Source: Blastocystis sp. Blastoise (lineage: Eukaryota > Protista > Bigyra: Opalinata). Taken from it: DNA of 64,000 nucleotides. The DNA lies in NCBI GenBank assembly GCA_039096225.1, contig JBBPEB010000029.1, forward strand, positions 248,001-312,000, read 5' to 3'. The notes beneath the pieces are model-generated. The model saw only the letters and a list, made by a program, of their open reading frames with translations, did no database searches and had not been told where the DNA came from. Both the position numbers and the translations under genes were made by a program. Shown piece by piece: positions 32,648 to 56,967 of this stretch; position 1 is the first letter of the stretch, and the number at the start of each line of letters is the position of its first letter.

Positions 32648-32693
32648 TAATAAATTGTATTATTCGTTTTTTCTATTTTTTATACTATATATT

Positions 32694-32861
32694 ATGGATT
32701 CTCCAAAGCAATTTGCTCCAGATTATAAAGAAGGTACTTGGAAACCTTATGGAAATTTTGAAGTTGATGAATTAAGTGATAGTGATTCTGATGTGGATAC
32801 TATTCAAACTGAAAGTGAAGATGATTATGAAGATTATATAAAAAATTTTATTGATTTTTAA
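32694..32861 (+). CDS. Small acidic viral protein (55 aa), unknown function
   Basis: ATG at 32694 after the HSE array; followed by a TTGTTTAGTT 3' motif at 32889. Confidence 0.55.
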   Translation: MDSPKQFAPDYKEGTWKPYGNFEVDELSDSDSDVDTIQTESEDDYEDYIKNFIDF

Positions 32862-32935
32862 ATTAACGTTTATAAATAACAAAGCAAATTGTTTAGTTTT
32901 TAAAAATAATAATAAATAAAACAAATTAAAATTAA

Positions 32936-34426: not shown

Positions 34427-34509
34427 TTTATAAAATAATTATGAATTTTAAAACAAAACAAAAAAAAAGAAATTATTTATATTATATAGTTAGTATATTA
34501 ATAGTATCA

Positions 34510-35301: not shown

Positions 35302-35377
35302 TATTTATTGTATTAATTTAAAAATAATTATATAACAAAACAAATAATTAATTATGAAATAATAAAAGTTAAAATAA

Positions 35378-36415: not shown

Positions 36416-36470
36416 AACAAAACAATAAAATAATTATGGTTTATTTAACAAATTAAAATATAAAAAAAAA

Positions 36471-37508: not shown

Positions 37509-37577
37509 TTTTATATGATTTTAATCAACAAAACAAAAAATAATTAATGATAAGTTAAAGATAAATAAATGATTTTA

Positions 37578-38249: not shown

Positions 38250-38345
38250 TTTTATTAAATGAATTAATTATGAAATTATAAACAAAACAATATTTTTAAG
38301 ATTAATATAAAGTTGATACAAATAAGAAAATATTATATAATTAAA

Positions 38346-39569: not shown

Positions 39570-39739
39570 GTTAATAATTATTGTTTATGTATTTTTTAAA
39601 TAAAAAATAAAATAATAATGATATTTTATAATTATAAAATTATTTGAAATTCATAACAAAACAAATGATTGGAATATAGAATAGAATAGAATTAATTAAA
39701 CAAGTTAACGTTAAGAATAGTAAGTAAGAAATATTAAAT

Positions 39740-41212: not shown

Positions 41213-41307
41213 ATTTCTTTTAATTTTAAATAAAATATTAATAAATAAATAAAATTAAATAATTTTTATAAATTAATATAAATTATAATTTAATAAAATT
41301 AGAAAAT

Positions 41308-43791
41308 ATGGAACTTGATGATGATAATTATGAAGAACAGACTTCATTAGAAGAGAAGGATACTCGTATTAAAACACATGTAGTCCCTATTGATGTTCGT
41401 TGTATTGATAATCAATTCAATATACATTTATCGAATTCTATTGATATCACTAAAAATATCATTTCTTATATTGATCTTAATTTAATTGGTAGTGAAAGTG
41501 TGCCTCTATTTGATACTTTCACAAAAACACAAATATTCAAATATATAAATACTCAAGTCAATGGTAATGAACAAATTCAAACAATTACTTTAGATCAGAA
41601 AAATTATTCTATTCCTCAATTATTAGAACAATGTCATTTTGATATATGTGATAGGCCATTAATAAGTGAATCTTCTGATATTGATCCTTCTGTTAAAATT
41701 AAGAAAATTCCAACAATTACAATTAATAGAGATGATTTTTATTGTGAATTTCATATTGCTAATGCAAGACGTGGTTTTAATTTCCCAAAAGGAACTTATA
41801 CAGATATAGAATTTTGGTGGATCGCTGTTTGTTTGGTATCTTCTGTATGGTTAGATAACAAAAATCGACTGATGATGAAATATGATGATGATAATATAAT
41901 AATATATCGACCTCAAACAACTTCTTTTCCTATTCCTGTTAGAACAACAGGGACTTATTCATTAAAAGAATATGCAAATAATGGTGTATTTAGTAAGTTC
42001 ATTCATGATATTCCTACACAAAGTAGTGAAGGAACAATTGAATGTGTAATTAATGAAGATCATAAGTTCTATTTTCAAGATGTAACTTCTCCAAATATAA
42101 ATATGATTCTAAAAATGGAAAATAATTTATTTACTGGTTTATTTGACGATAATGGAACACTAAAATACACTAAAAATGAAGAAGAAATTGTTTTGCAAAG
42201 AATTACGAATCCAGTTAAAGATGATGATACATATAATTTCAAAACATTAATTACTGTTGAAGATGGATATAATACAATGATTATTCGACAAATAAGTGGA
42301 ATGGGTGGTCGAATGGAAACTACATACACAATGCCTCCAGGAGAATATACTGAACAAGAATTCTATGATTTATTAGAAAGTTCAATCAATGGATCTCCTG
42401 AAACATATTACTTCGAAATATCAAAAGATGCTCAAACGATGGACAATAAAGATGGATATATAATATATTTATCATGGCAAGGTTATGATTCAAGTTCATG
42501 GACATTTACAGCTACAGATATAGAACATTCATTATTTAAATATCGTGGTGCTTTGCATAATATACGACCTGATTTAGTTTATGATAAACAAGGATGTTTT
42601 GCATGGAATATATCTTATGGTAAACAAACCATGGATGTACAAGTTGATTTAAATACACTTGATTTAGATGGAAATTATAGGTGTTATACGAATAATAGTT
42701 TTATGAATTTCTCTGAAGCACAAGAATTAGGTGAAATATTAGGTTATAGTAAATTATATTATAACGATGCAAATAGTTATTATGGTATTCATAATATTGA
42801 TAGTAGTCGTCCAAAAGGAATGTTAATAGCTCAATCGAATATAGTAGATAATAGTCAGAATTCTTTATATTCATTTAATGTGAATAATTATAAAGGCAAT
42901 AATGAATTTCATGATATTATGAATATTAATGTGTCTCCTTATTTGAATACCATACAAGATATTATTATACGATATACTGATAAGAATAAACAATATGTGA
43001 ATTTCAATAATAATTGTATTTTAAGAGGATTCTTAGAATTCTCAGATACAGTCGATACGATTCAACCAAGTGAAACCATTAAGAAATTATGTTTGAATTG
43101 TCAAACAGCAGATACACAATTCTATGCTGAATATCCTACATTGAATATCCAAAATAAGATCTTGAAAGATATTATTATTCAGAATGATACTGATACGATC
43201 CAAGCAAATGCATCTAAATTATGTACTGGATATATAAATGGATCTTATTATCCTACATTTAGTTTTCCTTTATCGGATAAATATGTTACATATAGTAATA
43301 TAAATTCTCCAATTACAATTGATCATCATATCGATTTAAGATTTGATGAATTATTCAAAGGAAATATAATTTGTAATATATGTGAACCTAATGGTAGTGA
43401 TATTCGTTTCAAAGCTTATGATGAAGTGTATTGTGATTTTAGTACAAGTAAGAATTTAATTTATGAATTGAAGAAAACCAATGTCTATGGATATCAATAC
43501 TTAACTAATATACAAGTTATATCAGTGTATGGTCAATCCACTGATTACTTATATCCTATTTCATTAAGATGTTTTACTAATGAATATGAGAATAATATTC
43601 ATGTTATTGATACTACAAATCTACCTTATTACTATTCGAATGGTATTAAATATGAAGGTATATCGAATAAGATCAATAAGAATGTTTATTATTGTAATCG
43701 TAAATTATTAAAGTTATTACCTCATGATAATATGTTCTTTATTACTTGTGATTATCCTTGTGTTGTTTTATTAACTATCTCTTATATATAA
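41308..43791 (+). CDS. Large penton-like / receptor-binding structural protein with nested insertions
   Basis: 827 aa. Repeated penton-type motifs (LDQKNYSIPQL, FPKGTYTDIEF, MPPGEYTEQEF), LGEILGY, IAQSNIVD, IQDIIIRYTDKNKQYVNFN, then a beta-rich C-terminal extension. Confidence 0.55.
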   Translation: MELDDDNYEEQTSLEEKDTRIKTHVVPIDVRCIDNQFNIHLSNSIDITKNIISYIDLNLIGSESVPLFDTFTKTQIFKYINTQVNGNEQIQTITLDQKNYSIPQLLEQCHFDICDRPLISESSDIDPSVKIKKIPTITINRDDFYCEFHIANARRGFNFPKGTYTDIEFWWIAVCLVSSVWLDNKNRLMMKYDDDNIIIYRPQTTSFPIPVRTTGTYSLKEYANNGVFSKFIHDIPTQSSEGTIECVINEDHKFYFQDVTSPNINMILKMENNLFTGLFDDNGTLKYTKNEEEIVLQRITNPVKDDDTYNFKTLITVEDGYNTMIIRQISGMGGRMETTYTMPPGEYTEQEFYDLLESSINGSPETYYFEISKDAQTMDNKDGYIIYLSWQGYDSSSWTFTATDIEHSLFKYRGALHNIRPDLVYDKQGCFAWNISYGKQTMDVQVDLNTLDLDGNYRCYTNNSFMNFSEAQELGEILGYSKLYYNDANSYYGIHNIDSSRPKGMLIAQSNIVDNSQNSLYSFNVNNYKGNNEFHDIMNINVSPYLNTIQDIIIRYTDKNKQYVNFNNNCILRGFLEFSDTVDTIQPSETIKKLCLNCQTADTQFYAEYPTLNIQNKILKDIIIQNDTDTIQANASKLCTGYINGSYYPTFSFPLSDKYVTYSNINSPITIDHHIDLRFDELFKGNIICNICEPNGSDIRFKAYDEVYCDFSTSKNLIYELKKTNVYGYQYLTNIQVISVYGQSTDYLYPISLRCFTNEYENNIHVIDTTNLPYYYSNGIKYEGISNKINKNVYYCNRKLLKLLPHDNMFFITCDYPCVVLLTISYI

Positions 43792-43860
43792 ATATTTTAA
43801 GACATTTCATTTAAATTAAAAAATGTTTTGTTATATTATTCATTTAAAAATTATTAAAAA

Positions 43861-44283
43861 ATGGAGCCTAAATCTGTATCTGAATCCTTACATTCTTTAT
43901 CAAGTACAAGTTCAACAAGTTCAGATAGTTCAACAACTACCACATTATCAGAAGAAGAAATAGAAAAGAAAAATACTTTATTAGAATTTATTATAAAAGC
44001 TATAAAATGTTTATTTGAGAAATCAACTGAATTCTTTCAATTAATTGTTAAAAATATAGATATTCATTGTAATTGTTGTAATCCACAAACAAAGAAAGTC
44101 TATTATAAGACAATGAAAATACAACAAACTATTATTGAAGAAGAAGTCAAACATATATCTGAAGTCTTGAATGAATTAGAAGAAATTGATTCTAATCAAA
44201 ATGAATCAATACAAGAATTAGCTGTTCAATTAATGAAATTAAATATAAGTGTTGATTCTATTGTTCAATCTCTTCATTTATAA
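43861..44283 (+). CDS. Hypothetical viral protein (Ser/Thr-rich N-terminus, CNCC, coiled coil)
   Basis: 140-aa intact ORF followed by the TTGTTTTGTT motif. Confidence 0.55.
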   Translation: MEPKSVSESLHSLSSTSSTSSDSSTTTTLSEEEIEKKNTLLEFIIKAIKCLFEKSTEFFQLIVKNIDIHCNCCNPQTKKVYYKTMKIQQTIIEEEVKHISEVLNELEEIDSNQNESIQELAVQLMKLNISVDSIVQSLHL

Positions 44284-44350
44284 TTCTATGAAATGTTATA
44301 AAATATTAATAATAAATTTGTTTTGTTTATAAATAATTTAATTTTTAATA

Positions 44351-46147
44351 ATGCAATCAACAGGTTATTCAGATAAAGATTGTGAAGAATTCTTTACAAA
44401 TTGTATAGATCAATTATTACATTGGAAGAAAATACAATTATCAACAAGTATAAATTGGAAGAAATGGATAAAGACAATATGTAAGAAATTTCGTAATGAA
44501 GAACGAATTCAAATAGATGATATGGAAGAACCATTCTTTTGTGTAGAAGTGTTAACAGATCCATTCCAATTTCAAAATGTTATGCAACATACACAAACAG
44601 AAGCTCCTGGACAACAAGGTGGATTATCCAATACTACTGTAGCTAATTATATGCAAATGATTACTTATATAATGAAGAATATATCTATTTGTACAGATGA
44701 TGAAGATATCATTAATTATAAAGCATTTACTCCACAAAATATAAAGAAATGGGAACATTTATGGGGTTCTTTACAAATTGATGCTACTTATTCAAGACAT
44801 TATGAAATTACTCAGAAAATTATTAATTGTGAAGCTGATTGGGGAGAAATCATTAATATCACCAAAAAGAATTATTTAGAGAATCCTAATGATTTATATT
44901 ATGTGAATAGTTATTTATTAGTTTTAACTTATGATACATTATGTGCTCGTAATGATTATAATGATTGTGTAATCTATACTCGTGGTCAACAAATTCCTTT
45001 ATCGTTAAGAAGAACAACCAATTATATTGATTTAAATACTTTAACTATTCATGTGAATGATACAAAGAATCGATTTGAAATTGGTAAGAATGAATATCCT
45101 ACTTATCAATATTTATCAGAAGAATATTTGAATGTCTTAGCTAGATCTTTACGTTTATTTCCAAGACATTATTTATTTGTTACTGAGAATGGTGGTAAAG
45201 TACGTGATTTGAAATTTGGTGATGAATATATAAAACCACATTTAGGCTGGATTTATAAAACACAACAGAATAATTCTTTAATTAATGGTTGTGATATTAT
45301 AAGACATTTATTTGCTCAATATTATTATAGATTATCAAGAGAAGCACAATTCCAACATGATGATTCAGAACATGAATCTAAAGGTGTAGAACTCTTTGAA
45401 AACTCTATTATGAAGATGTTACATAGTCAATCAACACATATGGAAAATTATATATCTCCTTATTTATCTTCTCATTCAACTAAATTGCAAGATTTAGATA
45501 ATAAAACAAGAACATTTCATATTGATATGAATAATATTACTTATACAAGAGAAATTAATCAATTAAATAAATTATTATTTTTATGTAAACGATTTAATGA
45601 TCGTATAGAACAATATGAAGAAGACTATGAAGATGTATTTGGTAAAGAGAATTTCAATATGAAATCAGAATCCATATTAAGTAGTCTAGAACAATATTCA
45701 TCAGATAATGATACTATAATGATTACATTAAGATATTATAAAGATCTATTAAAGCATCATTATCCAGATAAAACAGATTTAGAAAATGAATTACCTGTAG
45801 GATGTTCATTAGAATCTGAAGAAGTTCCAGAGAATTCTAGAGATCGTTATAATCGTTTTATACGTAATAAACAATTATTACCTGATCATTTACATAATAA
45901 TACAACGGATTCAGAATTAACGAATACTCAAGCATCTCTTATGCAACAGAATACTCAAGATGAAAACTCTACACCTATAGTTATGAATAATTCAGATACT
46001 TATGCATTACGTAGTCTTTCTACTATGCCTCCTTTAGAACCTATTCATCGTGGTCATGGTTTATGTAAAAAACATAAAAGTAATGCATTCTTTAAAGTCA
46101 AAGTCCCTAAAAAACATTTTCATGGAATTCAATTTAAATTTTATTAA
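44351..46147 (+). CDS. Tyrosine recombinase 1 (long)
   Basis: Catalytic pattern CARNDY (R), VNDTK (K), DIIRHLFA (RH), MLHSQSTHMENY (H..Y at +9); C-terminal RGHGL plus basic tail. Confidence 0.7.
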   Translation: MQSTGYSDKDCEEFFTNCIDQLLHWKKIQLSTSINWKKWIKTICKKFRNEERIQIDDMEEPFFCVEVLTDPFQFQNVMQHTQTEAPGQQGGLSNTTVANYMQMITYIMKNISICTDDEDIINYKAFTPQNIKKWEHLWGSLQIDATYSRHYEITQKIINCEADWGEIINITKKNYLENPNDLYYVNSYLLVLTYDTLCARNDYNDCVIYTRGQQIPLSLRRTTNYIDLNTLTIHVNDTKNRFEIGKNEYPTYQYLSEEYLNVLARSLRLFPRHYLFVTENGGKVRDLKFGDEYIKPHLGWIYKTQQNNSLINGCDIIRHLFAQYYYRLSREAQFQHDDSEHESKGVELFENSIMKMLHSQSTHMENYISPYLSSHSTKLQDLDNKTRTFHIDMNNITYTREINQLNKLLFLCKRFNDRIEQYEEDYEDVFGKENFNMKSESILSSLEQYSSDNDTIMITLRYYKDLLKHHYPDKTDLENELPVGCSLESEEVPENSRDRYNRFIRNKQLLPDHLHNNTTDSELTNTQASLMQQNTQDENSTPIVMNNSDTYALRSLSTMPPLEPIHRGHGLCKKHKSNAFFKVKVPKKHFHGIQFKFY

Positions 46148-46191
46148 TTTTAAAACAAAACAACTTTTTATAATAAAAAATAAATATATAT

Positions 46192-46356
46192 TTAATTTGG
46201 TATAGCATATAAAGTATTATCTATTAAAATTCGTTTTGTTGATGACGTATTATGATATTGATCTTCACTATAAACAATTTCTTCTTTCTTAGATAAACAA
46301 TTGGATAAACAGAATAAATCTGTATCTACACATTCATTATAAGTATTATCAATCAT
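46192..46356 (-). CDS. Small ORF (54 aa) whose ATG overlaps the primase-helicase stop (TAATG)
   Basis: MIDNTYNECVDTDLFCLSNCLSKKEEIV..YAIPN*; the minus-strand 3' motif lies at 46154-46163, just after it. Confidence 0.45.
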   Translation of the reverse strand: MIDNTYNECVDTDLFCLSNCLSKKEEIVYSEDQYHNTSSTKRILIDNTLYAIPN

Positions 46357-49193
46357 TAAACCACAAATACCAATAGCATTCCCCCCTTATAGAAATTTGA
46401 AGTATGTTTTCTATGAATATTCACAATATCTATAGAATTAAATGTATCTTTACTACTTAAACAACCAAATAAAGCATTTGTAAATTTATCTAAATCTTTC
46501 TTAATCGTAAATTGATTATTATTATTCACTTTCTTATAACTATTAAAAATATCTTCAATAGTAACTACATTCAAATAATAAGGATCTATAGTAATATGGT
46601 TATCAACAAAAGATTTCAAATCATATCCTTCTGTACTACGATCAAAGAATCGTTTCTTACATTCACTTATATGATATTCATTATCTAATTCATGCATATC
46701 TAATTGCATACTAGAATAGAAATAATTACTTACTAGATAACTAAAGATAATAGAACGATTCTGATAGAATTTATCGGATAGGGTATAATCCATTTCATAA
46801 TGATTGGGTTTCAATCTCTTTTCTACTGTCTGTTTACGTTTAGGTAAATTATGATCTACATAATCTTCATATAAATTAGCATTACCAGGAGGGAAATAAC
46901 GACAACATGATGGTAAGAAACAAACTCTTCTTTCAATAGGACCAGCATTCACAGCAGTAGGTTGAATATTACTTGTCATAAATAAAGTACCCGTGAAATG
47001 AACTTTTGTAAATATATTACTGAATAATTTACGAGCACTAGCACCTTCTTTCTTTTCTGCTATTTCTTTAAATACTTTAGAAGAGAATGGATTAAATGTT
47101 TTCTTTCTACCAGTAACATCTTCTTCTATTAATTCATTCATATAATACATTGTTTTATTAGACATATCTACAATCTTAGGAGCTATAGATGTTTCTTCTA
47201 AATTATCTGGATTTACTATAATACATTGATTACTACCTACAATACGAGAAATTAAATCAGTTGTTATTGTTTTACCATTACTACCTGTACTACCATATAA
47301 TATATAAGAAACTGTTTTCTGAGTATTGACATAGAAAGCAGTGGTTAAGATACGTAACATAATACTTTCATATTTCTTATCGAATTCACAATATCTTGCA
47401 ATATGTTGTTCAAATAATTGGATAATATCTTTCTGTTCATTATTTATATTCCAACTTACATTAAATTCAGTATCAATTAATAAATCTTCAAACACCATAT
47501 CTTCTTTATGATATGGTTGGATATAATATTGTCTAGGATCTTCTTCTGTAGATTCTTTTGGATATAAATAACCAAGTTGTGTATAGATAACACGTTCTTT
47601 ATGAACCATATAAGTATCTAAATATTCTTTATAAGATTTACCATAAGTCTTCAAATAACGATTCAACCATTCTTTATAATGATATTCATTAGTAACAGAA
47701 GCAGACATTATTTTATCAACTATTTTTTGATGTTGTTCATTCTCTTTGGAATATAATCTTGATAATTTGAATTTCTCTACAATCGATTTCATAAATGTAG
47801 TTATTTTGGTTTCAAAGAAATTAATATCATAATTATTCTTACAACGTCTTAAGATATTATATTCATCAAATGTATATAAGATAAAATTATCTTTATCTAA
47901 TATAATGGAAACAATTTCATTAAATTCTAATAATTGAAATAACATAACTAATGTTTGTGAATCTACAAGATTAAAGGATTGAATACATTCTAAAATAGAC
48001 ATAAATATGAAATCATTATCATCATCTTTATTAAATAATTTATTATCCATTAATATCTTCAAAATATAATTATTCGATAAATGAGTAGGATCAACTTGTA
48101 TATGATTCCATGTAGATTCAATTACATCATCACTTCGATCATGACCATAACGTAATGAATAATTTTTAAATAATTCTAATCCTCTTGTTGTATTACAAAT
48201 CTGTTTTGCTGCACAACATAATTTATACCAAGTATTATGAGATTCAAAATAATTCATATCTTCAATAGAACCAATCAATAATAAATATCGTTCCAATAAA
48301 GCTTCTTTAGATGCTGTAGTATCCAATATAGTATCTGTAGAAATCAACATAGGAATATCTTTAATATCTTGTATAGAACATAATATAGTACGTGAACAAT
48401 TATTTAATCTTGCATAATAACGTTTATAACGTGAATATTGTTTTAATTTATAAAAGATAATAGGATTAATAATATCACTTATAATATCATCTTCATTCTT
48501 ATAATTCAATAATGTTTTGAAATAATAATGTTCATCAATTTCATCATCTATTTTCTTCCATGATTTATTGGTATATTCTTCATATAATTTATAAGTAGAT
48601 GGAGAATTATCTTTACTACAACCAAGAAACATACAACCATTATTCTTTCTGGGTTTACCAATAACATTATAATCAATGAATTCTTTTATATCTAAATTAT
48701 ATGTTTTACATAAATCAACCAATTTTGTATTCAGAATCATACTATTATATAAGAAAAATAAATAATCACCATTTACAAACCAATTTGTATATATGTGAAT
48801 TCCCCATGAATAATGTATTTCATTATGAACTGTCTTCTTATTCACTTCTTTCTTTGTATACACAAGCGAAATAAATTCTTGATTATAATAATGAATACAA
48901 TGATTACACATTTCTTCTATAAATTCATGAATAAAAGAATCTGTTAGAAAAGAAAAATCATTTGATATTTGGTGATAATCTAAATCAAACCATAATCTTC
49001 TATAATTAGTTGATGTATTACAAGGAGTACAATCAATATAATGTAGTAATTCTTTTTGATGTTGGTAATTAGTAAATAGACTTTTATAAAATGGTAAAGG
49101 ATTTGGTATAATAATTTCACTATGATTATCTTTTGAGTTATCATGATTAAAGGAACCAAAAGTATAAACAAAATGAATTTGTGAATTTTCCAT
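46356..49193 (-). CDS. AEP primase-PriCT-2-SF3 (D5-like) helicase
   Basis: RLWFDLD and WGIHIY (AEP motifs), HNTWYKLCCAAK..LFKNYS..TWNHI (PriCT-2), Walker A YGSTGSNGKT, Walker B YYMNE, LFMTSN, ERRVCFLP. First ATG at 49193. Confidence 0.9.
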   Translation of the reverse strand: MENSQIHFVYTFGSFNHDNSKDNHSEIIIPNPLPFYKSLFTNYQHQKELLHYIDCTPCNTSTNYRRLWFDLDYHQISNDFSFLTDSFIHEFIEEMCNHCIHYYNQEFISLVYTKKEVNKKTVHNEIHYSWGIHIYTNWFVNGDYLFFLYNSMILNTKLVDLCKTYNLDIKEFIDYNVIGKPRKNNGCMFLGCSKDNSPSTYKLYEEYTNKSWKKIDDEIDEHYYFKTLLNYKNEDDIISDIINPIIFYKLKQYSRYKRYYARLNNCSRTILCSIQDIKDIPMLISTDTILDTTASKEALLERYLLLIGSIEDMNYFESHNTWYKLCCAAKQICNTTRGLELFKNYSLRYGHDRSDDVIESTWNHIQVDPTHLSNNYILKILMDNKLFNKDDDNDFIFMSILECIQSFNLVDSQTLVMLFQLLEFNEIVSIILDKDNFILYTFDEYNILRRCKNNYDINFFETKITTFMKSIVEKFKLSRLYSKENEQHQKIVDKIMSASVTNEYHYKEWLNRYLKTYGKSYKEYLDTYMVHKERVIYTQLGYLYPKESTEEDPRQYYIQPYHKEDMVFEDLLIDTEFNVSWNINNEQKDIIQLFEQHIARYCEFDKKYESIMLRILTTAFYVNTQKTVSYILYGSTGSNGKTITTDLISRIVGSNQCIIVNPDNLEETSIAPKIVDMSNKTMYYMNELIEEDVTGRKKTFNPFSSKVFKEIAEKKEGASARKLFSNIFTKVHFTGTLFMTSNIQPTAVNAGPIERRVCFLPSCCRYFPPGNANLYEDYVDHNLPKRKQTVEKRLKPNHYEMDYTLSDKFYQNRSIIFSYLVSNYFYSSMQLDMHELDNEYHISECKKRFFDRSTEGYDLKSFVDNHITIDPYYLNVVTIEDIFNSYKKVNNNNQFTIKKDLDKFTNALFGCLSSKDTFNSIDIVNIHRKHTSNFYKGGMLLVFVV

Positions 49194-49279
49194 GATTATT
49201 TGACTTATAAATAATGAAAATAAATATGGTATAAAATTCAAAACAAATAATATATTAAAGATTCTAGAAGTCAGTTTTA

Positions 49280-49399
49280 GAAGCTTCTAGAACATTCTAG
49301 AACATTCAGGAACATTCTATAATAGTAAATATTACTTTATATTTTTAAATGTTCTAGAACCTTCGAGAACCTTCTAGAACCTTCTAGAACCTTCTAGAA
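49280..49399. promoter_or_regulatory. Two heat-shock-element-like arrays upstream of the primase-helicase
   Basis: GAAgcTTCtaGAAcaTTCtaGAAcaTTCagGAAcaTTC (49280-49317) and TTCtaGAAccTTCgaGAAccTTCtaGAAccTTCtaGAAccTTCtaGAA (49352-49399). Confidence 0.65.
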
Positions 49400-49508
49400 C
49401 ATCATTTTTATACTTTAGTGTTTTAAATATATATACAATAAACAAAACAATTTTCAATGATTTTTACAAGTTTATAAGTAAAAATAGAAAAATAAACAAG
49501 AAAAATAA

Positions 49509-50132
49509 TTAAATTTCAATTGGTTCTTGACTATTAATATATGTACATGAATGAGGCCATCCATTTTTATCATATAAAATACCATCCCAGAAATACATTT
49601 GTTTTGAAGGATCTCTTTTAATCTTGTTAATACTCTTAGCATGAACAACTTCATAAGTATAAACTTTACCTTTTTCATCATAAAGGAATCCATCTTCCAT
49701 ATGGAATTTCATAATATCAAAATCATCATCTTTAGAATTCGAATGTTCTTTAGAATCTTCAGAACATAAAATAGTAGTTCTATCACTTTCTAAAAGATCT
49801 TCAGTATTGATAATATCTTGAATATCTTGTTCTTCATTAAGTTGTTGAGTATAAATATCAGCAGCGAATTCTTCATAATCTTCAAGACCTTTAATAACCG
49901 CGTTTATACGTTTTAAAGCTGATCTATAGTTTTCGACTTCGAAAGAAGCAAGACGTTCTTTAGATTTTGCAATACCCAATAGATTCTTTTCTCTATTCAA
50001 TTGAGACTGATGTAAATCAATATCACGAAGAACATTCTTATGAACTTCAACAGCCTTCTTAGAATTCTTAAGAAGTTCCATACGAACAGTTTGAAGACAT
50101 TTACGGGAATCAGCAGAAAGATTAAATTGCAT
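49509..50132 (-). CDS. Hypothetical coiled-coil viral protein
   Basis: ATG at 50132, heptad-rich N-terminal half, duplicated DG(F/I)LYD(E/K)(K/N)G motif; HSE-like element at 50244-50261 upstream. Confidence 0.6.
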   Translation of the reverse strand: MQFNLSADSRKCLQTVRMELLKNSKKAVEVHKNVLRDIDLHQSQLNREKNLLGIAKSKERLASFEVENYRSALKRINAVIKGLEDYEEFAADIYTQQLNEEQDIQDIINTEDLLESDRTTILCSEDSKEHSNSKDDDFDIMKFHMEDGFLYDEKGKVYTYEVVHAKSINKIKRDPSKQMYFWDGILYDKNGWPHSCTYINSQEPIEI

Positions 50133-50530
50133 TATAATCGCGAATATCGTTACAGAGAGAAAATTTGTATTTATCAAAATGAAATAAATAATACATTTAA
50201 ATGGAATATTAAATATTCTAGGAGACAGTGTAGAATCTCTATGGAATGTTCTAGAAGGTTCATTTGATTGGCTAATTTTGTCGACTTAGCATTTTTTATT
50301 TGTGTTTCAATGACGAGTATAGTTGGCATCTGTAATCTGATTGGATAAAAAAATTAGTAAAACACAATTAGACGATGACGACGACTTGTCATACAAAATA
50401 AGCTATTCTATTGGTTTATTTTCCAGCTGGAAGCAATAGGCTTTTGTTAGCAACTGAAATGAAGAACTGTACACTAAAAATAGTATATTTAATATATTGT
50501 ATAAAAATACTTTTGAAGGTTTAAATAATC

Positions 50531-51058
50531 ATGGAAATTCCTGATAGTCTTTCTGCCAGTTTATCCCCTTTCGGTCAAGCCATGATATCCCCCTTGTTGA
50601 ATCCATTTGAAAATAGTGTTTCTGAAAATCCTATGGCTTTACCCAATGATAATGATTTCTGTTTTAATTCGCGTGACGAAATCATATTTGAAGATCCACC
50701 TCAAGAAATTCATCCAATCAATGATGTTTATGTATCTAAAAATCCAGATAGATATCATTCGGTTAACAATCAACCAATACAATTTCAAGATCAAGTAAAT
50801 ACAAATCCTAATAAGCAAGCATTATTATTTACAAATGAGGAGTTAACAAATATATCCAGTCAATTCGAATCTTTATTTCAAACTATTGAAACAGCTGATA
50901 ATATATTAAATAGTATTTATTGTACTGTTGATCATTTAAAAACAAAGATTGAAAGTCAGAAACAAGATTTGAAACAGATTCATGATGATTCTAAAGAAAT
51001 TGTTTCATTATTATCCGAATATTCTATTCCTTCTATGTCTGAAATATTTGATCATTAA
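50531..51058 (+). CDS. Hypothetical viral protein (acidic N-terminus, C-terminal coiled coil)
   Basis: 175-aa ORF followed by TTGTTTTGTT at 51081. Confidence 0.6.
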   Translation: MEIPDSLSASLSPFGQAMISPLLNPFENSVSENPMALPNDNDFCFNSRDEIIFEDPPQEIHPINDVYVSKNPDRYHSVNNQPIQFQDQVNTNPNKQALLFTNEELTNISSQFESLFQTIETADNILNSIYCTVDHLKTKIESQKQDLKQIHDDSKEIVSLLSEYSIPSMSEIFDH

Positions 51059-51144
51059 TTTATTTATTTAATTAATTATTTTGTTTTGTTTATTTTTTAA
51101 ATTAATTACACAAAGTTTAAATGGAGAATAGAATAATTTCAAAT

Positions 51145-51253
51145 AGAATTCTTGAATGGTCTAATGGATCTATTAAAGAAATATGTAACCACAGTATCAT
51201 GGTTCGATTCCGTTAAAATGTTTCCATTAGATTATTCAAGTGTTCTTTTTTTT
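51145..51253 (+). ncRNA. Putative RNA polymerase III small RNA (VA/vault-like architecture)
   Basis: A box TGGTCTAATGG 51157-51167, B box GGTTCGATTCC 51201-51211, long terminal stem with G:U pairs, T8 terminator 51246-51253. Confidence 0.65.
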
Positions 51254-51299
51254 CTAGAACCTTCTCGAACATTCTAGAACCTTCTCGAACCTTCTGGAA
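51252..51299. promoter_or_regulatory. Heat-shock-element-like array upstream of the SSB-like gene
   Basis: TTCtaGAAccTTCtcGAAcaTTCtaGAAccTTCtcGAAccTTCtgGAA (10 units). Confidence 0.65.
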
Positions 51300-51376
51300 A
51301 ATTGATTCATTTGAAAAGAATATCTAAATATATTAGTATTAAAATACTTATATTTTTACTAAATACTTAACTAAAA

Positions 51377-51970
51377 ATGTCTACAACTGAATTTAAAAAA
51401 CCTACTATTCTTGATACTTCTAACTTTAATTTACAATGGGATGACACCAAAGAAAATGCTGTTCTTTTAAATAATAATCATCGTGTATGTATTTCTACTG
51501 ATGCTACACCATGTTTATTTGGTTATATTGTTACACGTGATAAATGGACTTTATTAACAATTGAAGATGATAATCAATTATTCTTAACTGCTTATAAAGA
51601 ACTTTATCGTAAATTATGTGAATTATGTCCTGATGGTGATATTGTTAATTTTGTACGTATGGATAATGGTAAATATAAGATTACAATTAAAGTACCTATT
51701 AATGCATCGAAGAATGTTACTATTGATATTACTGATAAAAGAGATAAGAAGATTAATATCGGTAAAGATCCTAAGTTAACTTACGAAGAAATACGTGAAA
51801 AGTATATTCCACCAAATACGTTATGTAAAGTATTATTTACAATACATGGTATTCATCGTTATAATAACAAGTATTATATTGGTTTATATGCTCGTTCTAT
51901 TAAAGTCATCGATAAATCTACGAAGAATACTAATAGTAATGATACTATTATTGATTTAACTAATTTATAA
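51377..51970 (+). CDS. Probable OB-fold ssDNA-binding protein (T7 gp2.5 / NCLDV DUF2738-like)
   Basis: TPCLFGY, KYKITIKVP and IPPNTLCKVLFTIHGIHRYNNKYYIGLYARSIKV resemble the viral SSB pattern; recognised by eye only. Confidence 0.5.
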   Translation: MSTTEFKKPTILDTSNFNLQWDDTKENAVLLNNNHRVCISTDATPCLFGYIVTRDKWTLLTIEDDNQLFLTAYKELYRKLCELCPDGDIVNFVRMDNGKYKITIKVPINASKNVTIDITDKRDKKINIGKDPKLTYEEIREKYIPPNTLCKVLFTIHGIHRYNNKYYIGLYARSIKVIDKSTKNTNSNDTIIDLTNL

Positions 51971-52044
51971 ATTTTTAATGTTAAATTTATTTTTTATTAA
52001 TATATTTGTTTTGTTTATAAATAATTTTATAATTGAAATAAAAA

Positions 52045-53673
52045 ATGCAAAGTTGTATATTAGGAATGCCAAGTCCTGGTACTTTTGGTATGAATTTAAT
52101 TTCAACTGGAAAAGAATATAGGCGATATAATACACAGCCATTACATAAAATGGATCAATATAATCCAATATTTCATGAAATAGGTCCAAATTCATCTATG
52201 CCTGTAACTACTTTAGAAAGTAAAGAAATACATGATGGTAAAGAAGATGATTATGTAGATCGTTCTAAAACATTTGGTAAAGATGCTGTTCCACAAGGAA
52301 ATGGTGCATTAATTCGTGCTAGAGCAGCAGGTAAAGGTGTAATGAAAGCAGCTGGTCCAGAAGAAGATAAAATAGATGGTGAAGATCGTCAATATAAAGT
52401 ATTAAATCCATGTAAACCAAGACGTAAATCTGGTAGAGGTATTATTCCAAATAAATCAGAAATCAATAAATTAGAAAATAATCAAGGTTCTGGTATTGGT
52501 GATGCAATTAAAAATAAAGTAAAAGATATGTATCAACGAAATGTATTAGATATAAGAGATGCTATTGTAGATAAAAAAGCTAATAGAAAAGCTCGTGATG
52601 CATTAGCTATTTTAGCTCAATATGTTGGTGATGGTCATCATGATCTTGATGATGAATTCAAAAGATTCTATGATCATAAAATAAAACGTGGTGGAAAGAT
52701 TCCTATATCTGTTGCTTCAGCAATTATGAATGCAATTAAAAATAAGAAAATGATTAAGAATCCAAAATTAAGAAGAATGTTAAGACCTTCAATTATACCA
52801 AAATATATAGATTTAGATTCAGCTCAAAGTGGTGATGGTATATTAAGAGTTAAAAGAGGTGGTGGATTCTGGGATGGAGTAATGAATTATGCACCAGCTC
52901 TTTTAGGTGTAGTTGATAAAGGTATGGATTCTTTTGCTAAAGGTAGAAAAGCTTATTATGATACACATTTGGCACAACAATCAAGTGAATTAAATGATAT
53001 GGAATTTGAAATGGAAAAATTAAAACGTCAACAAGCATTAAATGAAATGAAAAAACAAATAGGTTCAGGAAATACTATAAATAAAATGTTTGAAGGATAT
53101 TATGATGTAGCTGATGAAATGCAAGATGCTCTTAACGAAGATGATAGACTACATCCACAACCCGTTGTTCAACCTCCACCACCTCCACAACAACAAGTTG
53201 TTAGACCTCCTCAACCTCAACCTCCTCAACCTTATAAACCTATGTCTCGTGATGAACAAAGTTATCCTTATAAGATTTATGGTTTCCCTCAAAATGATAA
53301 GGAGAAAGTCGATAGAAAATGGAAAGAAGATGAAAGGGATAAACGAATAGCTGCAAGAAGAGCTAAACGTAGAGGATATGGTGGTCGAGTTAAATTAAGT
53401 AAAGAAGAATTCTTAGAACGAATGAGAAGAGGAAAAGAAGCTAAAAAGAAAAGAGGTGGTGAATTGCCTCCATTGGTAACAGCTTATACAGATTTTGTAA
53501 TACCTGCACAAGTAGAACAAAGGAAACGTAAAGTAGCTAAAAATGATTTAAAACAATTACAAATTATAAAACAGAAAATGGATAATAATGAAATATTAGA
53601 TAGAGGTGAACAAATGTTTTGGAAAGAAAAGAAGTATATGTTATCAAAAAACTCAGGGGAGGGGATCTGGTAA
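52045..53673 (+). CDS. Core polyprotein precursor with many GxG/RGG maturation sites
   Basis: 542 aa, basic and Pro-rich segments; QGNGAL, AGKGVM, SGRGII, QGSGIG, KRGGKI, SGDGIL, KRGGGFW, IGSGNT, GYGGRV, KRGGEL. Confidence 0.6.
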   Translation: MQSCILGMPSPGTFGMNLISTGKEYRRYNTQPLHKMDQYNPIFHEIGPNSSMPVTTLESKEIHDGKEDDYVDRSKTFGKDAVPQGNGALIRARAAGKGVMKAAGPEEDKIDGEDRQYKVLNPCKPRRKSGRGIIPNKSEINKLENNQGSGIGDAIKNKVKDMYQRNVLDIRDAIVDKKANRKARDALAILAQYVGDGHHDLDDEFKRFYDHKIKRGGKIPISVASAIMNAIKNKKMIKNPKLRRMLRPSIIPKYIDLDSAQSGDGILRVKRGGGFWDGVMNYAPALLGVVDKGMDSFAKGRKAYYDTHLAQQSSELNDMEFEMEKLKRQQALNEMKKQIGSGNTINKMFEGYYDVADEMQDALNEDDRLHPQPVVQPPPPPQQQVVRPPQPQPPQPYKPMSRDEQSYPYKIYGFPQNDKEKVDRKWKEDERDKRIAARRAKRRGYGGRVKLSKEEFLERMRRGKEAKKKRGGELPPLVTAYTDFVIPAQVEQRKRKVAKNDLKQLQIIKQKMDNNEILDRGEQMFWKEKKYMLSKNSGEGIW

Positions 53674-54239
53674 AGAGTAAAGATGAAAAACTTATTCAAA
53701 ATTCAATGAATTGCGATAATCCTATTATATCTGATAAAACTCGTCATGTTACTCCTAGATCCCCTGATAATTTTAAACAAACTCTATTTCAATATTGTAA
53801 TATACCCAATTCTTTAATATCTCAATTATATAATTATGCTTATTTAAATAAACCTACCTCTTCTGTTGCTTGTGATCGTGCTGAAAATGTTATGAAACAA
53901 TTAAATAAAACGAATTCTCAATCTTATAATTATTATAATAGTTATGATGATTTTGAACAAAATATAGATCAAGATCAAACTAAATTTAATATGATCTTTC
54001 ATGAAAGTCCTAGTGATCCTTATAATGGTCATTTTGAAGCTGTTATTTATAATGGTAATAAAAATATAGAACACTATTCATCATTAGGAAATAAACCTAC
54101 TTTTTCAAAATCATTTATTCAAAATCATAATATTCAATATAATCCTATTCAACACCAAAAAACTACAAGTAATGCAAATGGTTGCTTTTATTATTCTTTA
54201 CTTTATTTACTTTCTAATGGAAATCTTATGCCTTGTTAA
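53619..54239 (+). CDS. Adenain/Ulp1-like cysteine maturation protease (-1 frame relative to the core polyprotein; first ATG 53706)
   Basis: GHFEAV (His), EHYSSLG (variant of the usual FDS(F/L)G), oxyanion QHQ and GCFYYSLLYL (Cys). Confidence 0.7.
   Translation: MERKEVYVIKKLRGGDLVKSKDEKLIQNSMNCDNPIISDKTRHVTPRSPDNFKQTLFQYCNIPNSLISQLYNYAYLNKPTSSVACDRAENVMKQLNKTNSQSYNYYNSYDDFEQNIDQDQTKFNMIFHESPSDPYNGHFEAVIYNGNKNIEHYSSLGNKPTFSKSFIQNHNIQYNPIQHQKTTSNANGCFYYSLLYLLSNGNLMPC
53646..53765 (+). promoter_or_regulatory. Candidate -1 programmed ribosomal frameshift signal
   Basis: In-frame slippery heptamer A AAA AAC (53646-53652), 7-nt spacer, stem AGGGGATCTGG/CTAGATCCCCT (53660-53670/53755-53765) extended by GAGTAA/TTACTC. 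Confidence 0.65.
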
Positions 54240-54325
54240 AACCTTCTAGAATATTCTAGAATCTCTAATTTATTATATTAATATTTTGTATAATTAATTT
54301 GTTTTGTTTATTATTTAATACTATA

Positions 54326-54481
54326 ATGACAAAGAAACGATTTGGCAATTACTACTTAGATCGTAGTGCAGAAACTTTAGAGAATGTAAATGAAATACTG
54401 TCAGTTATTGAAATTGTTCTTATTATTATATATATTTTACTTTACTTCTATATGTCCAAGAAACGTTCTAGAACATTCTAG
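54326..54481 (+). CDS. Small single-pass membrane protein (51 aa)
   Basis: ILSVIEIVLIIIYILLYFYM hydrophobic run followed by basic residues; HSE-like element at 54244-54261 upstream, 3' motif at 54552. Confidence 0.45.
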   Translation: MTKKRFGNYYLDRSAETLENVNEILSVIEIVLIIIYILLYFYMSKKRSRTF

Positions 54482-54583
54482 AACATTCATTTTGAACTGG
54501 CTCTATTTGTAGAATCTTTAATTTATTATATTAGTGTTTTATATAATTAATTTGTTTTGTTTAATCATTGGTTAATTTTAATA

Positions 54584-54958
54584 ATGAACAAGAAATATCT
54601 TAGTTATTCTTATTTTTGTCGTGTGATGAAGAATCTAAAAGAAGAAGGAATTAAATCCAAAAAGAATGAAATAGCGAATCTTTTAGAACAATTTTTAAAT
54701 AACAATAACAACAAAAATCTTAGTGATTTACAACTAAGTTATTGTAGAAACATGTTACTTTATATAGATGATCCTGTGATTCATCAACGTCTTGAAATGC
54801 TATTGGATAAACAATATATGAAGAATGAGAATCAATATCAAGAGGATAAGAATCTTATTCAACCCAATAATATGTTTATGCCTACTATGAAAAGTAATCA
54901 ACAACAAAATCAATACCAAAATAATAATAATAATCTATCTTTCTTACCTTTTAATTAA
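54584..54958 (+). CDS. Hypothetical viral protein (Asn/Gln-rich C-terminus)
   Basis: 124-aa ORF from ATG 54584; HSE-like element at 54466-54488 upstream, TTGTTTAGTT at 54982. Confidence 0.55.
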   Translation: MNKKYLSYSYFCRVMKNLKEEGIKSKKNEIANLLEQFLNNNNNKNLSDLQLSYCRNMLLYIDDPVIHQRLEMLLDKQYMKNENQYQEDKNLIQPNNMFMPTMKSNQQQNQYQNNNNNLSFLPFN

Positions 54959-55031
54959 TTTTTATATCCTTTTATTACTAGTTGTTTAGTTATATTCAAA
55001 ATTAAAACAAAACAAACATAAAAACATAAAA

Positions 55032-55967
55032 TTATTCAATTAATTTTTTAAATAAATTATTATTTTCTAAAGATACATAAGAATTAATATGTGTATAATC
55101 ATTATGACATAAAGCAGAAGCAGAATTTTCTATATCTTGGAATGTATTGGTTGTAGTTGTAGCATATAATTTTCTTAATGCATTAATGGTTAATTTTGGA
55201 TGGATTTGTTTTAAATGCTTATTCACAAACCAATCAAATGCTTTAGTAGTAAATCCAGTTCGTACAGAAGATTCAAATATAAATTTACGATTTGGATTTC
55301 TTTTTAAGAGTAATTCTAGATCTTCAATCAATTCTTTTGGTGCATCTAATTGAATTGTAGAGTATTTACCAGCAGTTTTATAATCATTCAATAGAATAGA
55401 ACCAGTGTGTTTCTCTTTATCATAAACAATATAATTCTTATGAATAGCTGGATCAATAGTATCTTCTGGAGTTAGAATGAATAATTGAGCATAATCAGCA
55501 CGAGCAGGAGGAAGATAGGAGTAAAAATCTAATATTAATCGTAATGGATTATAATTTTCTAATTTATCGTGATATTCATGTAAATATGGAGTCGTAATAC
55601 CATCTTTAATAAGATCTTGAATCAAAGTGCGTTTCTTATTATCCAGATATTTTTCATACATAGAATTGATAATCACATAAAATTCACACCATTTATTTAA
55701 AATACCTTCTTTATTTAATGAAGAAACATTACGTATAATAAATAATATCAATTCACATAACGATTTCATTGGACTAATTTTGATTTTACGTTCATTTACC
55801 ATATAATCCATGAATGAATAAGGATTCTTTAAGAATTCTGAGAACTTTTTAAATGGTAATGGGAAAATATATAAATTGAAATAATTGGTTAAACGTTTTT
55901 TCCAAATATCAGAATAATTTGAATTCTGTATAACCAAAAGATACTTGTCATAATTTGTATTTTTCAT
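55032..55967 (-). CDS. Tyrosine recombinase 2 (integrase- or protelomerase-like)
   Basis: PPARADY (R), LNDYKTAGKY (K), NALRKLYA (R..Y), LCHNDYTHINSY (H..Y at +9); adjacent to the right TIR. Confidence 0.8.
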   Translation of the reverse strand: MKNTNYDKYLLVIQNSNYSDIWKKRLTNYFNLYIFPLPFKKFSEFLKNPYSFMDYMVNERKIKISPMKSLCELILFIIRNVSSLNKEGILNKWCEFYVIINSMYEKYLDNKKRTLIQDLIKDGITTPYLHEYHDKLENYNPLRLILDFYSYLPPARADYAQLFILTPEDTIDPAIHKNYIVYDKEKHTGSILLNDYKTAGKYSTIQLDAPKELIEDLELLLKRNPNRKFIFESSVRTGFTTKAFDWFVNKHLKQIHPKLTINALRKLYATTTTNTFQDIENSASALCHNDYTHINSYVSLENNNLFKKLIE

Positions 55968-56055
55968 TGATTTTCTCAAGTAGAATCTTTAAAACTTCTA
56001 TTTTCAAAAGAATAATACATAAGAAAATCAAAATAAAATATCTAAGATTCTCATG

Positions 56056-56967
56056 TTCTCGAATGTTCTAGAAGTTTCGAGAATGTTCTAGAATATTCTA
56101 GAAAATTGATATACATCCCGCCACCTAAAACCACTGGAACACAATTAGTTTCCCCAGTTTCCCCAATATAATTGTGTTTTTGTGTTCCGAAATCCCTCAT
56201 TTTTACAATTTTAAGCAATTTGATTGGACAATTCACGATGACGCATCCTATTTCCATAACGGTCACCCTTGTTTCCAAAAGTCTCTCGTTATAGTCGTGG
56301 TGGTGGGTACATCTTTTTACAAGACCACACCACCACCAGCTTTTCTTTCACCCACTATAAATACATACCTTGATCACTTTACTCTTTTTTATATAAATTT
56401 TTTATGATTATCATGACTTTTTATATTATTTATTGATCACTATACATACATTTTTATTTTTATATATTCCCGTGATTATTTTTATTATTTCTTTTTAGAT
56501 AGAACCATCCATTTCATCTTTTCTCTATATAAAGGGAGGGTCGGGGTGTGTGTTTATTTAGCACATTCTGTGCTTCTTTTCGTATTTCTTTCTGTATTCC
56601 CGTGATTATTTTACTCACTTTACCAACGATGGAGTCATTTTCCATGAATATTCCCTGTAAAGGGGAGGGTTGGACTGTGTATTTTATTTCTTTTATGATT
56701 ACTATGAGTTTCTCCTTGATCACTTTACGTTTCACGTTGGAATCGGAACACAAATAAATTAAAAATAAATAAACATGGGAAAAAATAAATACACACACAC
56801 ACTACCCTACACTCCCATGGTTATTTTACTTCAGAAATGTTATTAATTCTTCCGTCGAGAACAAAAAAGGGGGATGTCTTCCCCGCTTATGGCTGCGCGC
56901 GTCGCGCAGACTCTATGCGGGGTTTGCATACCCCCTTCTGCAGTTCGAAGAACGGAAGAATTATTAT
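56056..56967 (-). repeat. Right terminal inverted repeat (912 bp)
   Basis: Reverse complement of 31736-32647; its HSE-like array (56056-56103) lies upstream of tyrosine recombinase 2. Confidence 0.95.

Follow-up and report, generated by a model that had tools for sequence, protein, structure and literature searches.

Two paralogous tyrosine recombinases in an integrated Polinton-like virus of Blastocystis and their possible division of labour

The stretch of DNA analysed here (the window, 64,000 nucleotides of Blastocystis sp. Blastoise) contains an integrated Polinton-like virus (PLV) of 25.2 kb at 31736..56967, an unstranded feature with terminal inverted repeats (TIRs) at both ends. The left TIR, 912 bp long (31736..32647, plus strand), is 98.6% alike to the right TIR (56056..56967, minus strand). 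About 20 near-identical copies of the element were found. No direct target-site duplication is visible at the one junction pair examined, where a palindromic one of 2-4 bp is possible. The outermost part of each TIR forms an imperfect palindrome. The left one (31740..31859, plus strand) consists of a 12-bp outer stem, several bulges, a GC-rich tip and a 3-nt loop; the right one (56844..56963, minus strand) is the same isomer, with 1 difference in 130 nt. The terminal palindromes of the preliminary description are therefore real, as the 120-nt hairpin folds with z = -7.6 and 0 of 200 shuffles are equally stable, but they are imperfect and mismatched: 82-90 of 130 nt are paired in an asymmetric stem (stability -34 to -38 kcal/mol), and the terminal 130 nt hold no perfect palindrome with arms of at least 5.

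The left part of the element is read mostly from the minus strand. Three ORFs of 496, 263 and 345 aa (32936..36415, minus strand) come first; the basic 496-aa and 345-aa products carry GxG-hydrophobic sites and, judged by sequence, are likely core proteins. They are followed on the same strand by a packaging ATPase-like ORF of 345 aa (36471..37508; phrog_2666, E 1e-10), a 223-aa ORF (37578..38249) that from its position alone is possibly a minor capsid protein, and two paralogous ORFs of 407 and 490 aa (38346..41212; 27% identical). These paralogues are likely double-jelly-roll (DJR) major capsid proteins, an assignment made by feature search rather than fold (feature score of 0.97 to viral clusters, in one of which 10% carry a DJR-like family). 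Two plus-strand ORFs of 827 and 140 aa (41308..44283), which gave no match in family searches, lie directly before the first tyrosine recombinase, YR1 (44351..46147, plus strand). To its right are a primase-helicase-like ORF of 945 aa (46356..49193, minus strand; phrog_1156, E 2e-9), ORFs of 207 aa (minus), 175 aa (plus) and 197 aa (plus) within 49509..51970, a basic 542-aa protein with 11 GxG sites (52045..53673, plus strand) that is likely another core protein, a protease-like ORF of 177 aa (53706..54239, plus strand), a 124-aa ORF (54584..54958, plus strand) and the second recombinase, YR2 (55032..55967, minus strand). A search of sequencing runs listed no RNA run that contains the element; run X1, taken for RNA only as a guess, matched a quarter of the search words. 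A poly-A-like loose end occurs at 54998 in the contigs of X1, but its strand is ambiguous and no conclusion is drawn from it. These contigs do not cover the right TIR, and runs X2 and X3 gave no cover, gaps that carry no evidential weight. The DJR capsid (by feature search), the packaging ATPase, the TIRs and a size within 15-40 kb mark the element as a PLV. No related loci were found in viral-contig or metagenome-contig collections.

YR2 is a compact OLV11-like tyrosine recombinase of 311 aa. Its predicted structure (pLDDT 96.5) has the core-binding and catalytic domain fold of tyrosine recombinases and resembles XerH (Z 13.4, rmsd 4.2, 270 aligned) and Cre (Z 12.3, rmsd 4.3, 264 aligned). 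The top fold match is a protein of Aureococcus anophagefferens virus (E 7e-11, TM 0.77); this virus, if not that exact protein, has been named as a carrier of OLV11-like recombinases. YR1 is longer (598 aa), with the recombinase part in residues 1 to about 375 and a C-terminal extension of about 220 aa that YR2 does not have. Its homology to tyrosine recombinases spans both domains, as judged from HMM and profile-profile (hhalign) comparisons. The predicted structure has a low pLDDT of 52.9, and its best match, XerD (Z 7.6, rmsd 14, 171 aligned), scores level with unrelated helical proteins; the top viral fold matches of this model are the same proteins as those of YR2. Among the 168 YR1 homologues longer than 580 aa the catalytic motifs are kept almost throughout (R 168, K 167, R 167, H..Y 168), and in near-identical YR1 copies only 3 of 16 amino-acid-variable sites fall in the recombinase part (p 4e-4).

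Most of what the preliminary description said of the two genes themselves holds. Both ORFs are placed as given and keep the R-K-R-H-Y pattern (R200, K239, R318, H358 and Y367 in YR1; R156, K197, R265, H288 and Y297 in YR2). YR1 does sit in a structural-gene block, after the two capsid paralogues and the 827-aa and 140-aa ORFs; no HSE array occurs in the 400 bp 5' of it; and it ends in a GxG site (568) and a basic tail, RGHGLCKKHK being followed by a tail of net charge +8. YR2 does lie just downstream of the HSE array in the TIR, its start being about 90 bp from 56056-56103. The claim that the recombinases are distinct stands insofar as there are two intact enzymes, but they are paralogues and not members of distinct families.

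By sequence, YR1 and YR2 are members of a single family, that of the OLV11-like PLV recombinases. Direct BLASTP of YR1 against YR2 is not significant, and single-sequence Pfam and PDB searches gave weak or unrelated matches only. An HMM of 124 distant YR2 relatives finds YR1 with E 3e-11; as controls, 10 other ORFs of the element reach E 0.2 at best, and the reversed YR1 sequence goes unreported. Profile-profile comparison of the YR1 set with the YR2 family gives 98.6% over 289 columns. The closest relatives belong to Preplasmiviricota and giant viruses; the atlas clusters are 100% viral, with Preplasmiviricota commonest. YR1 and YR2 form sister clades with support of 98/94 in a 32-row tree and 81 in a 55-row quick tree, so that an old duplication is likely; the long YR1 branch could, however, join YR2 artefactually, and the outgroup was gathered with YR2 as query. 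The YR1 stem amounts to 2.7 changes per column and is followed by short tips (32-row tree). Both share Thr-His before the catalytic Tyr (9 of 9 rows shown), where 6 of 6 distant rows shown have x-Gln. The first His of H-x-x-R is replaced by Asp in YR1 and by Asn in YR2.

The pair appears to have been kept together. Of the 14 listed YR1 copies that could be checked, 12 have both recombinase genes, with accessions only 5-8 numbers from each other. A distant relative probably also keeps both, as its YR1 and its YR2 each have a longest contig of 21,800. The 24,131-bp YR1 lineage has no YR2 partner of matching size among the 15 of 27 members listed, and the 23.7-24.0-kb YR2 lineage has no size-matched YR1 partner among the 120 of 163 YR1 matches listed. 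Across lineages the YR1 domain is 57-62% identical and YR2 40-42%, which argues for long retention. It also argues against redundancy or transient module replacement, in which both genes would do the same job. Replication and integration modules do turn over in PLVs, but YR1 and YR2 are sisters rather than unrelated acquisitions, and we regard this reading as highly unlikely.

The two genes differ in their promoters. HSEs consist of three or more alternating nGAAn units. HSE-like nGAAn arrays lie at the inner end of the left TIR (32600..32647), upstream of a 54-aa acidic ORF without GxG (32694-32858); upstream of the primase-helicase-like ORF (49280-49317 and 49352-49399); among the 207-, 175- and 197-aa ORFs (50244-50261 and 51252-51299); upstream of the 124-aa ORF (54466-54488); and, at the inner end of the right TIR, upstream of YR2 (56056..56103). 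The YR2 promoter thus has three or more alternating units, as found before the replication genes. The arrays are far above chance: overlapping three-unit matches number 45 in the element versus 1 in 38.8 kb of flank, and 30 resampled sequences have a mean of 0.6 and a maximum of 2. An array lies upstream of 7 of 19 ORFs, and a GxG-hydrophobic site occurs in 0 of these 7 versus 6 of the 12 others (Fisher p 0.04). We found nothing in the literature on a Blastocystis HSF, and no earlier report of HSEs in PLVs in the open literature without supplements. Separately, TGTTTTGTT was considered as a late promoter and rejected, since it occurs between convergent genes but is missing where genes diverge.

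The C-terminal extension of YR1 shares its type of GxG site with basic proteins of the element. A GG or GxG-hydrophobic site lies within the last 45 aa in 165 of 168 YR1 homologues. These represent four lineages (<80% identity), all with a GxG/GG site and a basic tail; the site moves in position between the lineages, which are not independent. No second site is found in the remaining extension of five representatives (shuffle p 0.04-0.14 each). A terminal GG/GxG site is present in 0 of 5 YR2 lineages and in 24 of 146 distant relatives. In clan CE proteases the catalytic site contains Cys-Gly. The 177-aa ORF, which we take to be protease-like from its motifs, keeps the His motif, Asn-Gly-Cys replaces Cys-Gly in 4 of 4 sequences, and family searches matched no protease family. 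Such an apparently degenerate ORF counts against the predicted GxG cleavage of YR1. The mavirus integrase is carried in the virion and virion proteins are cleaved between GG and X and between GX and G (PMC6428243, PMC6048507), and this virus is a good precedent for the predicted packaging of YR1. The cleavage-type motifs of mavirus are like those of YR1 and the basic proteins; mavirus differs in that its integrase is of the RVE type and its clan CE protease is active, where the present element has a tyrosine recombinase and the degenerate protease-like ORF.

Based on these features we propose that YR1 is a packaged integrase and YR2 a stress-induced release enzyme. We give the whole split a probability of about 0.4, the support for this part of the preliminary description being circumstantial (promoter class, the YR1 tail, the long YR1 stem and the retention of both genes). 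YR1 would be made late and then packaged in the virion, and would attach incoming genomes with hairpin ends to host DNA; YR2 would be induced alongside the replication genes through heat-shock-type elements, its task being to release or resolve the provirus. The free genome would be linear, with mismatched hairpin ends. On entry into an unstressed cell the virus would need a ready-made integrase, YR1, because YR2 and the replication genes would depend on an inducible factor. The proposed site of action of both enzymes is the base, whether of the folded hairpin or of the extruded cruciform, and not the tip, where protelomerases act; the reaction would be a strand exchange or a Holliday-junction cut completed by host repair. 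Action at the stem base would account for the presence of the whole palindrome, unfolded, at both ends and for the lack of a clear target duplication. Against the split counts the canonical-integrase look of YR2, which is compact, the least derived of the pair and adjoins the terminus; so does PgVV-14T, in which a related recombinase is not consistently detected in particles. A fuller version, for a whole family of gut-protist viruses, is doubtful: here YR1 would be a virion-borne integrase acting via folded mismatched hairpins and YR2 an HSF-induced cruciform cutter, together making a lysogeny switch without a helper giant virus. If true, single-strand integration as in integron attC or CTX phage would have a eukaryotic counterpart in hairpin integration by YR1, and cruciform cutting by YR2 would release the provirus and re-form the hairpin ends.

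The reverse assignment, itself rather unlikely, makes YR2 the ordinary integrase/excisionase and YR1 either a late VLF-1-like enzyme, which would resolve the concatemers left by replication at the cruciform as packaging proceeds, or a DNA-binding virion component. It agrees with the compactness of YR2, its position next to the terminus and its being closest to the generic family, since integrases usually adjoin their site. Baculovirus VLF-1 is a nucleocapsid component of the tyrosine-recombinase family, and the mismatched hairpins of poxviruses arise from cruciform cutting and serve packaging. However, an integrase that is only inducible would leave the virus in an unstressed cell without one.

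It is improbable, if conceivable, that YR1 and YR2 cooperate on one asymmetric site, as XerC/XerD do or as bracovirus VLF-1 and INT-1 do. XerC/XerD act on a folded single-stranded site in the case of CTX phage. The joint retention of a paralogous pair and the asymmetric hairpin stem would fit such cooperation, and when either vlf-1 or int-1 was knocked down, bracovirus excision no longer took place (PMC3649998). The different promoter classes and the tail confined to YR1 speak against it and suggest different times of use. We also see little chance that one or both enzymes are type IB topoisomerase (TopIB)-like nicking enzymes that prime or relax DNA. The catalytic domain of YR2 matches bacterial TopIB (Z 12.9, rmsd 3.4, 173 aligned), tied with XerH, and in the family other residues stand in place of the leading His in H-x-x-R (T 66, N 35 and S 19 of 129), but over the full length, core-binding domain included, the match is to recombinases (270 aligned), and there is no other integrase among the ORFs of an element with about 20 copies.

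The preliminary description had YR2 as an excision or telomere-resolving enzyme acting on the terminal palindromes. The reading of YR2 as a protelomerase, which would refold the palindrome centre into hairpin telomeres, is largely refuted by profile, fold rank and substrate geometry alike. This reading draws on the palindromes at both ends and on an R-x-x-Y-A motif; TelA is also among the fold matches of YR2. The motif is present (NALRKLYA) but is no mark of protelomerases, as 88 of 129 family members have RxxY and 8 have RxxYA, and YR1 carries RHLFA at the same position. At E 0.01 the telomere-resolvase Pfam family matches 0 of the 129 members and Phage_integrase 24; the family profile against PDB matches integrases and XerD only; and tblastn of YR2 against phage records gave no match. 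In the structural comparison TelA (Z 6.8, rmsd 8.7, 256 aligned) and TelK (Z 5.7, rmsd 6.7, 185 aligned) fall well below XerH and Cre, and the EhV-86 resolvase ranks 46 of 50 among the fold matches. Protelomerase cuts lie 6 bp apart in a centre that is self-complementary (PMC3558466), whereas here there is a 3-nt loop between mismatched arms and no self-complementary 6-bp centre. Refolding of the centre only would give perfectly paired hairpins, the mismatches being erased in one round, and a protelomerase could not, it seems, maintain a mismatched, odd-looped hairpin. TelN, TelK, TelA and ResT share with the present system superfamily chemistry and palindromic ends (PMC3558466).

Among known systems, the OLV11-like PLVs (Yutin 2015, PMC4642659; PgVV-14T; entomopoxvirus-associated PLVs, PMC11296320) are closest, with a recombinase of the same family by sequence and fold next to the terminus, a primase-helicase, TIRs, and capsid and packaging ATPase genes. 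In the passages that describe them, each element has a single recombinase, whereas the present one has two paralogues that fall into different promoter classes, with a long tail on one of them. We found no earlier report of a PLV with two tyrosine recombinases in the open literature without supplements. Among the endogenous virophages and PLVs of Halocafeteria seosinensis (bioRxiv 10.64898/2026.07.28.741278), elements that lack a protein-primed polymerase likewise have palindromes at the TIR ends. Some of the virophages have two integrases, an RVE and a tyrosine recombinase, in contrast to two tyrosine recombinases here, and the illustrated palindrome is 52 nt beside a target-site duplication, in contrast to 120 mismatched nt without a clear one. 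Bracovirus/nudivirus VLF-1 together with INT-1 makes up a pair of duplicated tyrosine recombinase paralogues in an integrated eukaryotic virus, virion-associated, both detected in virions and needed for excision (PMC3649998); unlike this element, they belong to an unrelated lineage with direct-repeat junctions and circular products. Mavirus and bracovirus are partial precedents. In poxviruses, which do not integrate, the A22 resolvase cuts the cruciform, whereas this element is integrated and no such enzyme was found among its ORFs. Poxvirus flip-flop hairpins are incompletely paired, at -29 to -47 kcal/mol under other conditions, as against -34 to -38 here (PMC8956199).

For the integration and excision of tyrosine-recombinase PLVs with TIRs and a linear genome, a circular intermediate is presumed in the papers cited here. 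The element lends itself to a defined test of both steps: its two enzymes are small, its hairpin is a single one of 120 nt, about 20 recent insertions lie in one assembled genome, and it seems to have a stress switch. Moreover, it seems to represent a virus family of Blastocystis-type gut protists that has not been described before and that has relatives in public metagenome assemblies.

The element is a Polinton-like virus bounded by terminal inverted repeats (TIRs), and self-comparison of the window finds a single inverted-repeat pair of 912 bp, 98.6% alike (31736-32647 and 56056-56967). The TIRs enclose 19 ORFs, among them a packaging-ATPase-like gene, a primase-helicase-like gene, two tandem likely capsid paralogues (27% identical, 38346-41212), a protease-like gene (53706-54239), basic proteins with many GxG sites (a cleavage-type motif of virion proteins), and two recombinase genes, YR1 (44351-46147, + strand, 598 aa) and YR2 (55032-55967, - strand, 311 aa). 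A family search of these ORFs gave no match to polymerase B or retroviral integrase families. Another Blastocystis virus, in the available part of its description, carries both PolB and a retroviral integrase (Starrett et al., PMC8502044). NCBI-named hypothetical proteins of Blastocystis sp. Blastoise match YR1 or YR2 at 99-100% identity; 21 distinct near-identical sequences for YR1 and 10 for YR2 are spread over several megabase contigs, and thus there are about 20 recent copies of the element. More divergent YR2-clade proteins (P0200, P0201, P0358, and P0359; 31-41% identical) are named from the same host genome, which therefore holds additional element families. In its available sections, the Blastocystis genome paper does not discuss the element and uses the words 'viral' and 'virus' once each (PMC10690189).

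Both proteins are tyrosine recombinases, as the preliminary description had held, and the R-K-R-H-Y pentad is conserved in both. YR2 has 324 relatives among cluster representatives at E 0.001; in an alignment of 129 of them R156, K197, and R265 never vary, the His and Tyr columns hardly do, and 24 of the 129 match Pfam Phage_integrase. The predicted structure of YR2 (pLDDT 96.5) has a recombinase fold and matches XerH (Z 13.4, rmsd 4.2, 270 aligned), with XerA and Cre also among the matches. A pairwise search did not detect YR1 as a YR2 relative; the family HMM detects it at E 3e-11 (decoys at 0.2 or worse), and profile comparison gives 98.6% over 289 columns spanning both domains. The YR1 model is of low confidence (pLDDT 52.9), and in its fold search XerD (Z 7.6, rmsd 14, 171 aligned) ties with unrelated helical proteins, though its best viral fold matches are the same proteins as for YR2. 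Among 168 full-length YR1 homologues, 167-168 conserve each of the five catalytic residues, and near-identical YR1 copies differ mostly outside the recombinase part, which holds 3 of their 16 variable sites.

YR1 and YR2 group together at 98/94 in a 32-row tree (4 YR1, 5 YR2, and 23 distant rows, the last chosen after removing the first tree's longest branches), where the stem leading to YR1 measures 2.7; in a quick 55-row tree the value was 81. T-H precedes the catalytic Tyr in both, versus x-Q in distant rows. Given the grouping and the common T-H, the two are most likely paralogues that, judging from sequence, arose by duplication within this lineage, with long-branch attraction and a YR2-derived outgroup as caveats. 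The presence of two recombinases is real, and both are retained in near-identical copies and probably in one relative (YR1 59% and YR2 40% identical; longest contig 21,800 for both). In 12 of 14 YR1 accessions among the matches listed, a YR2 accession lies 5-8 numbers away.

Each TIR opens with a 120-nt imperfect palindrome (folding z -7.6) that has a 12-bp outer stem, bulges, and a 3-nt loop, with 82-90 of 130 nt paired. The same isomer occurs at both ends, and the element edge lies at most about 4 bases from the stem base. The mismatched hairpins of vaccinia arise, in the portion of the source available, by cutting of an extruded cruciform (PMC8956199). Mismatched hairpins would by this analysis come from cruciform cutting or nicking at the stem, not from refolding of the centre. 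For a tyrosine recombinase, one strand exchange suffices for either.

The two genes differ in their surroundings as previously described: YR2 has an upstream heat-shock-element-like array, YR1 lacks one, and YR1 bears the GxG site and basic tail. Arrays of alternating nGAAn, which we take to be the heat-shock-element consensus, precede 7 of the 19 ORFs, with the helicase and YR2 in this group; the remaining 12, including YR1 and the capsid block, lack them. One sequencing run, RNA by guess, yields 54 contigs placed on the element (most 90-99% alike) that cover parts of the 542-aa, 177-aa, 124-aa, and YR2 ORFs and give no gene ranking. YR1 alone has an extension of about 220 aa; although only 26-32% conserved, it closes in 4/4 lineages with a GG or GxG site plus a basic peptide that has a hydrophobic tip. 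Across the proteins of the element, GxG-hydrophobic sites number 15 where 2.9 would be expected, an enrichment. Mavirus virion proteins, in the parts of the reports available, are cleaved at GG/X and GX/G (before the last letter), and the integrase is packaged (PMC6048507, PMC6428243). In the protease-like ORF, an invariant Asn-Gly-Cys replaces Cys-Gly and Ser replaces the catalytic acid in 4/4 sequences. Cys-Gly is the usual motif of clan CE proteases, and the ORF may encode a conserved pseudo-protease or one with a shifted active site. Packaging of YR1 is made less probable by this lack of Cys-Gly, and also because the PgVV-14T recombinase is, in the accessible text, inconsistently detected in particles (bioRxiv 2022.07.28.501842).

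We favour, at a probability of about 40%, an assignment in which YR2 carries out stress-activated release or resolution and YR1 is carried in particles and joins the element to host DNA. Stress would switch on YR2, the helicase, and their partners; YR2 would cleave the stem base or cruciform, freeing or resolving a linear hairpin-ended genome; and late genes would yield particles with YR1 inside. In a new, unstressed cell YR1 would link the strands of the stem to AT-rich host DNA, after which repair would copy the unfolded hairpin. The reverse split, with YR2 as the integrase and YR1 as a VLF-1-like packaging resolvase, is somewhat unlikely, and joint action of YR1 and YR2 is doubtful. Topoisomerase-like action is improbable, although the YR2 model matches bacterial topoisomerase IB (Z 12.9, rmsd 3.4, 173 aligned); mere redundancy of the two recombinases has an equally small chance. 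A protelomerase, hinted at earlier from the RxxYA of YR2, is very improbable: RxxY occurs in 88/129 and RxxYA in 8/129 family members (YR1 has RHLFA), the motif being the family's ordinary helix following the second Arg and rejected as a protelomerase mark; TelA (Z 6.8, rmsd 8.7, 256 aligned) and TelK (Z 5.7, rmsd 6.7, 185 aligned) rank 30 and 41 among fold matches; and a Pfam search lists the telomere-resolvase family for 0/129 relatives. Protelomerase cuts, in the available part of PMC3558466, are spaced 6 bp about a self-complementary centre, whereas the terminal palindrome is mismatched with a 3-nt loop. Refolding of the centre alone joins strands that are paired beforehand, so it would yield a perfect hairpin and remove the mismatches within a single round.

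Single OLV11-like recombinases are already known from the portions available of PMC4642659, PMC11296320, and bioRxiv 2025.10.09.676808, 2026.06.19.733378, and 2026.10.13.758929, as are terminal palindromes accompanied by an RVE integrase and a recombinase (bioRxiv 2026.07.28.741278). In the literature listings searched, no Polinton-like virus was seen to carry a pair of tyrosine recombinases. A duplicated recombinase pair is known from bracoviruses, as far as the source is available (PMC3649998). The available part of the egovirus preprint (2024.03.23.586382) found no gene flux with Blastocystis, and thus no helper virus is in view.

The motif TGTTTTGTT has 15 copies in the element (34452-55014) versus 3 in 38.8 kb of flank, and 14 element copies lie on the gene's strand past the stop codon. 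We take it to resemble the Blastocystis downstream polyadenylation element. This pattern suggests transcription by the host polymerase and perhaps adaptation of the virus in a different Blastocystis lineage; the polyadenylation element is not enriched in tortoise-isolate genes, in the sections available (PMC10690189). Immediately past the left-TIR heat-shock-element-like array lies a strongly acidic 54-aa ORF (32694-32858), possibly an activator or DNA mimic. The flanks contain Harbinger-type (DDE_Tnp_4), hAT-like, and MULE transposase ORFs (17245-18414, 20439-22726, and 61532-62923). Just left of the virus are a 3-kb inverted repeat pair, 99.6% alike, whose members are separated by 2 kb and which has 488-bp repeats inside it (23038-31072), and a short GC-rich hairpin-like stretch within AT-rich flank (31361-31402); to the right are tandem repeats with periods of 10 and 20 bp (58024-60727).
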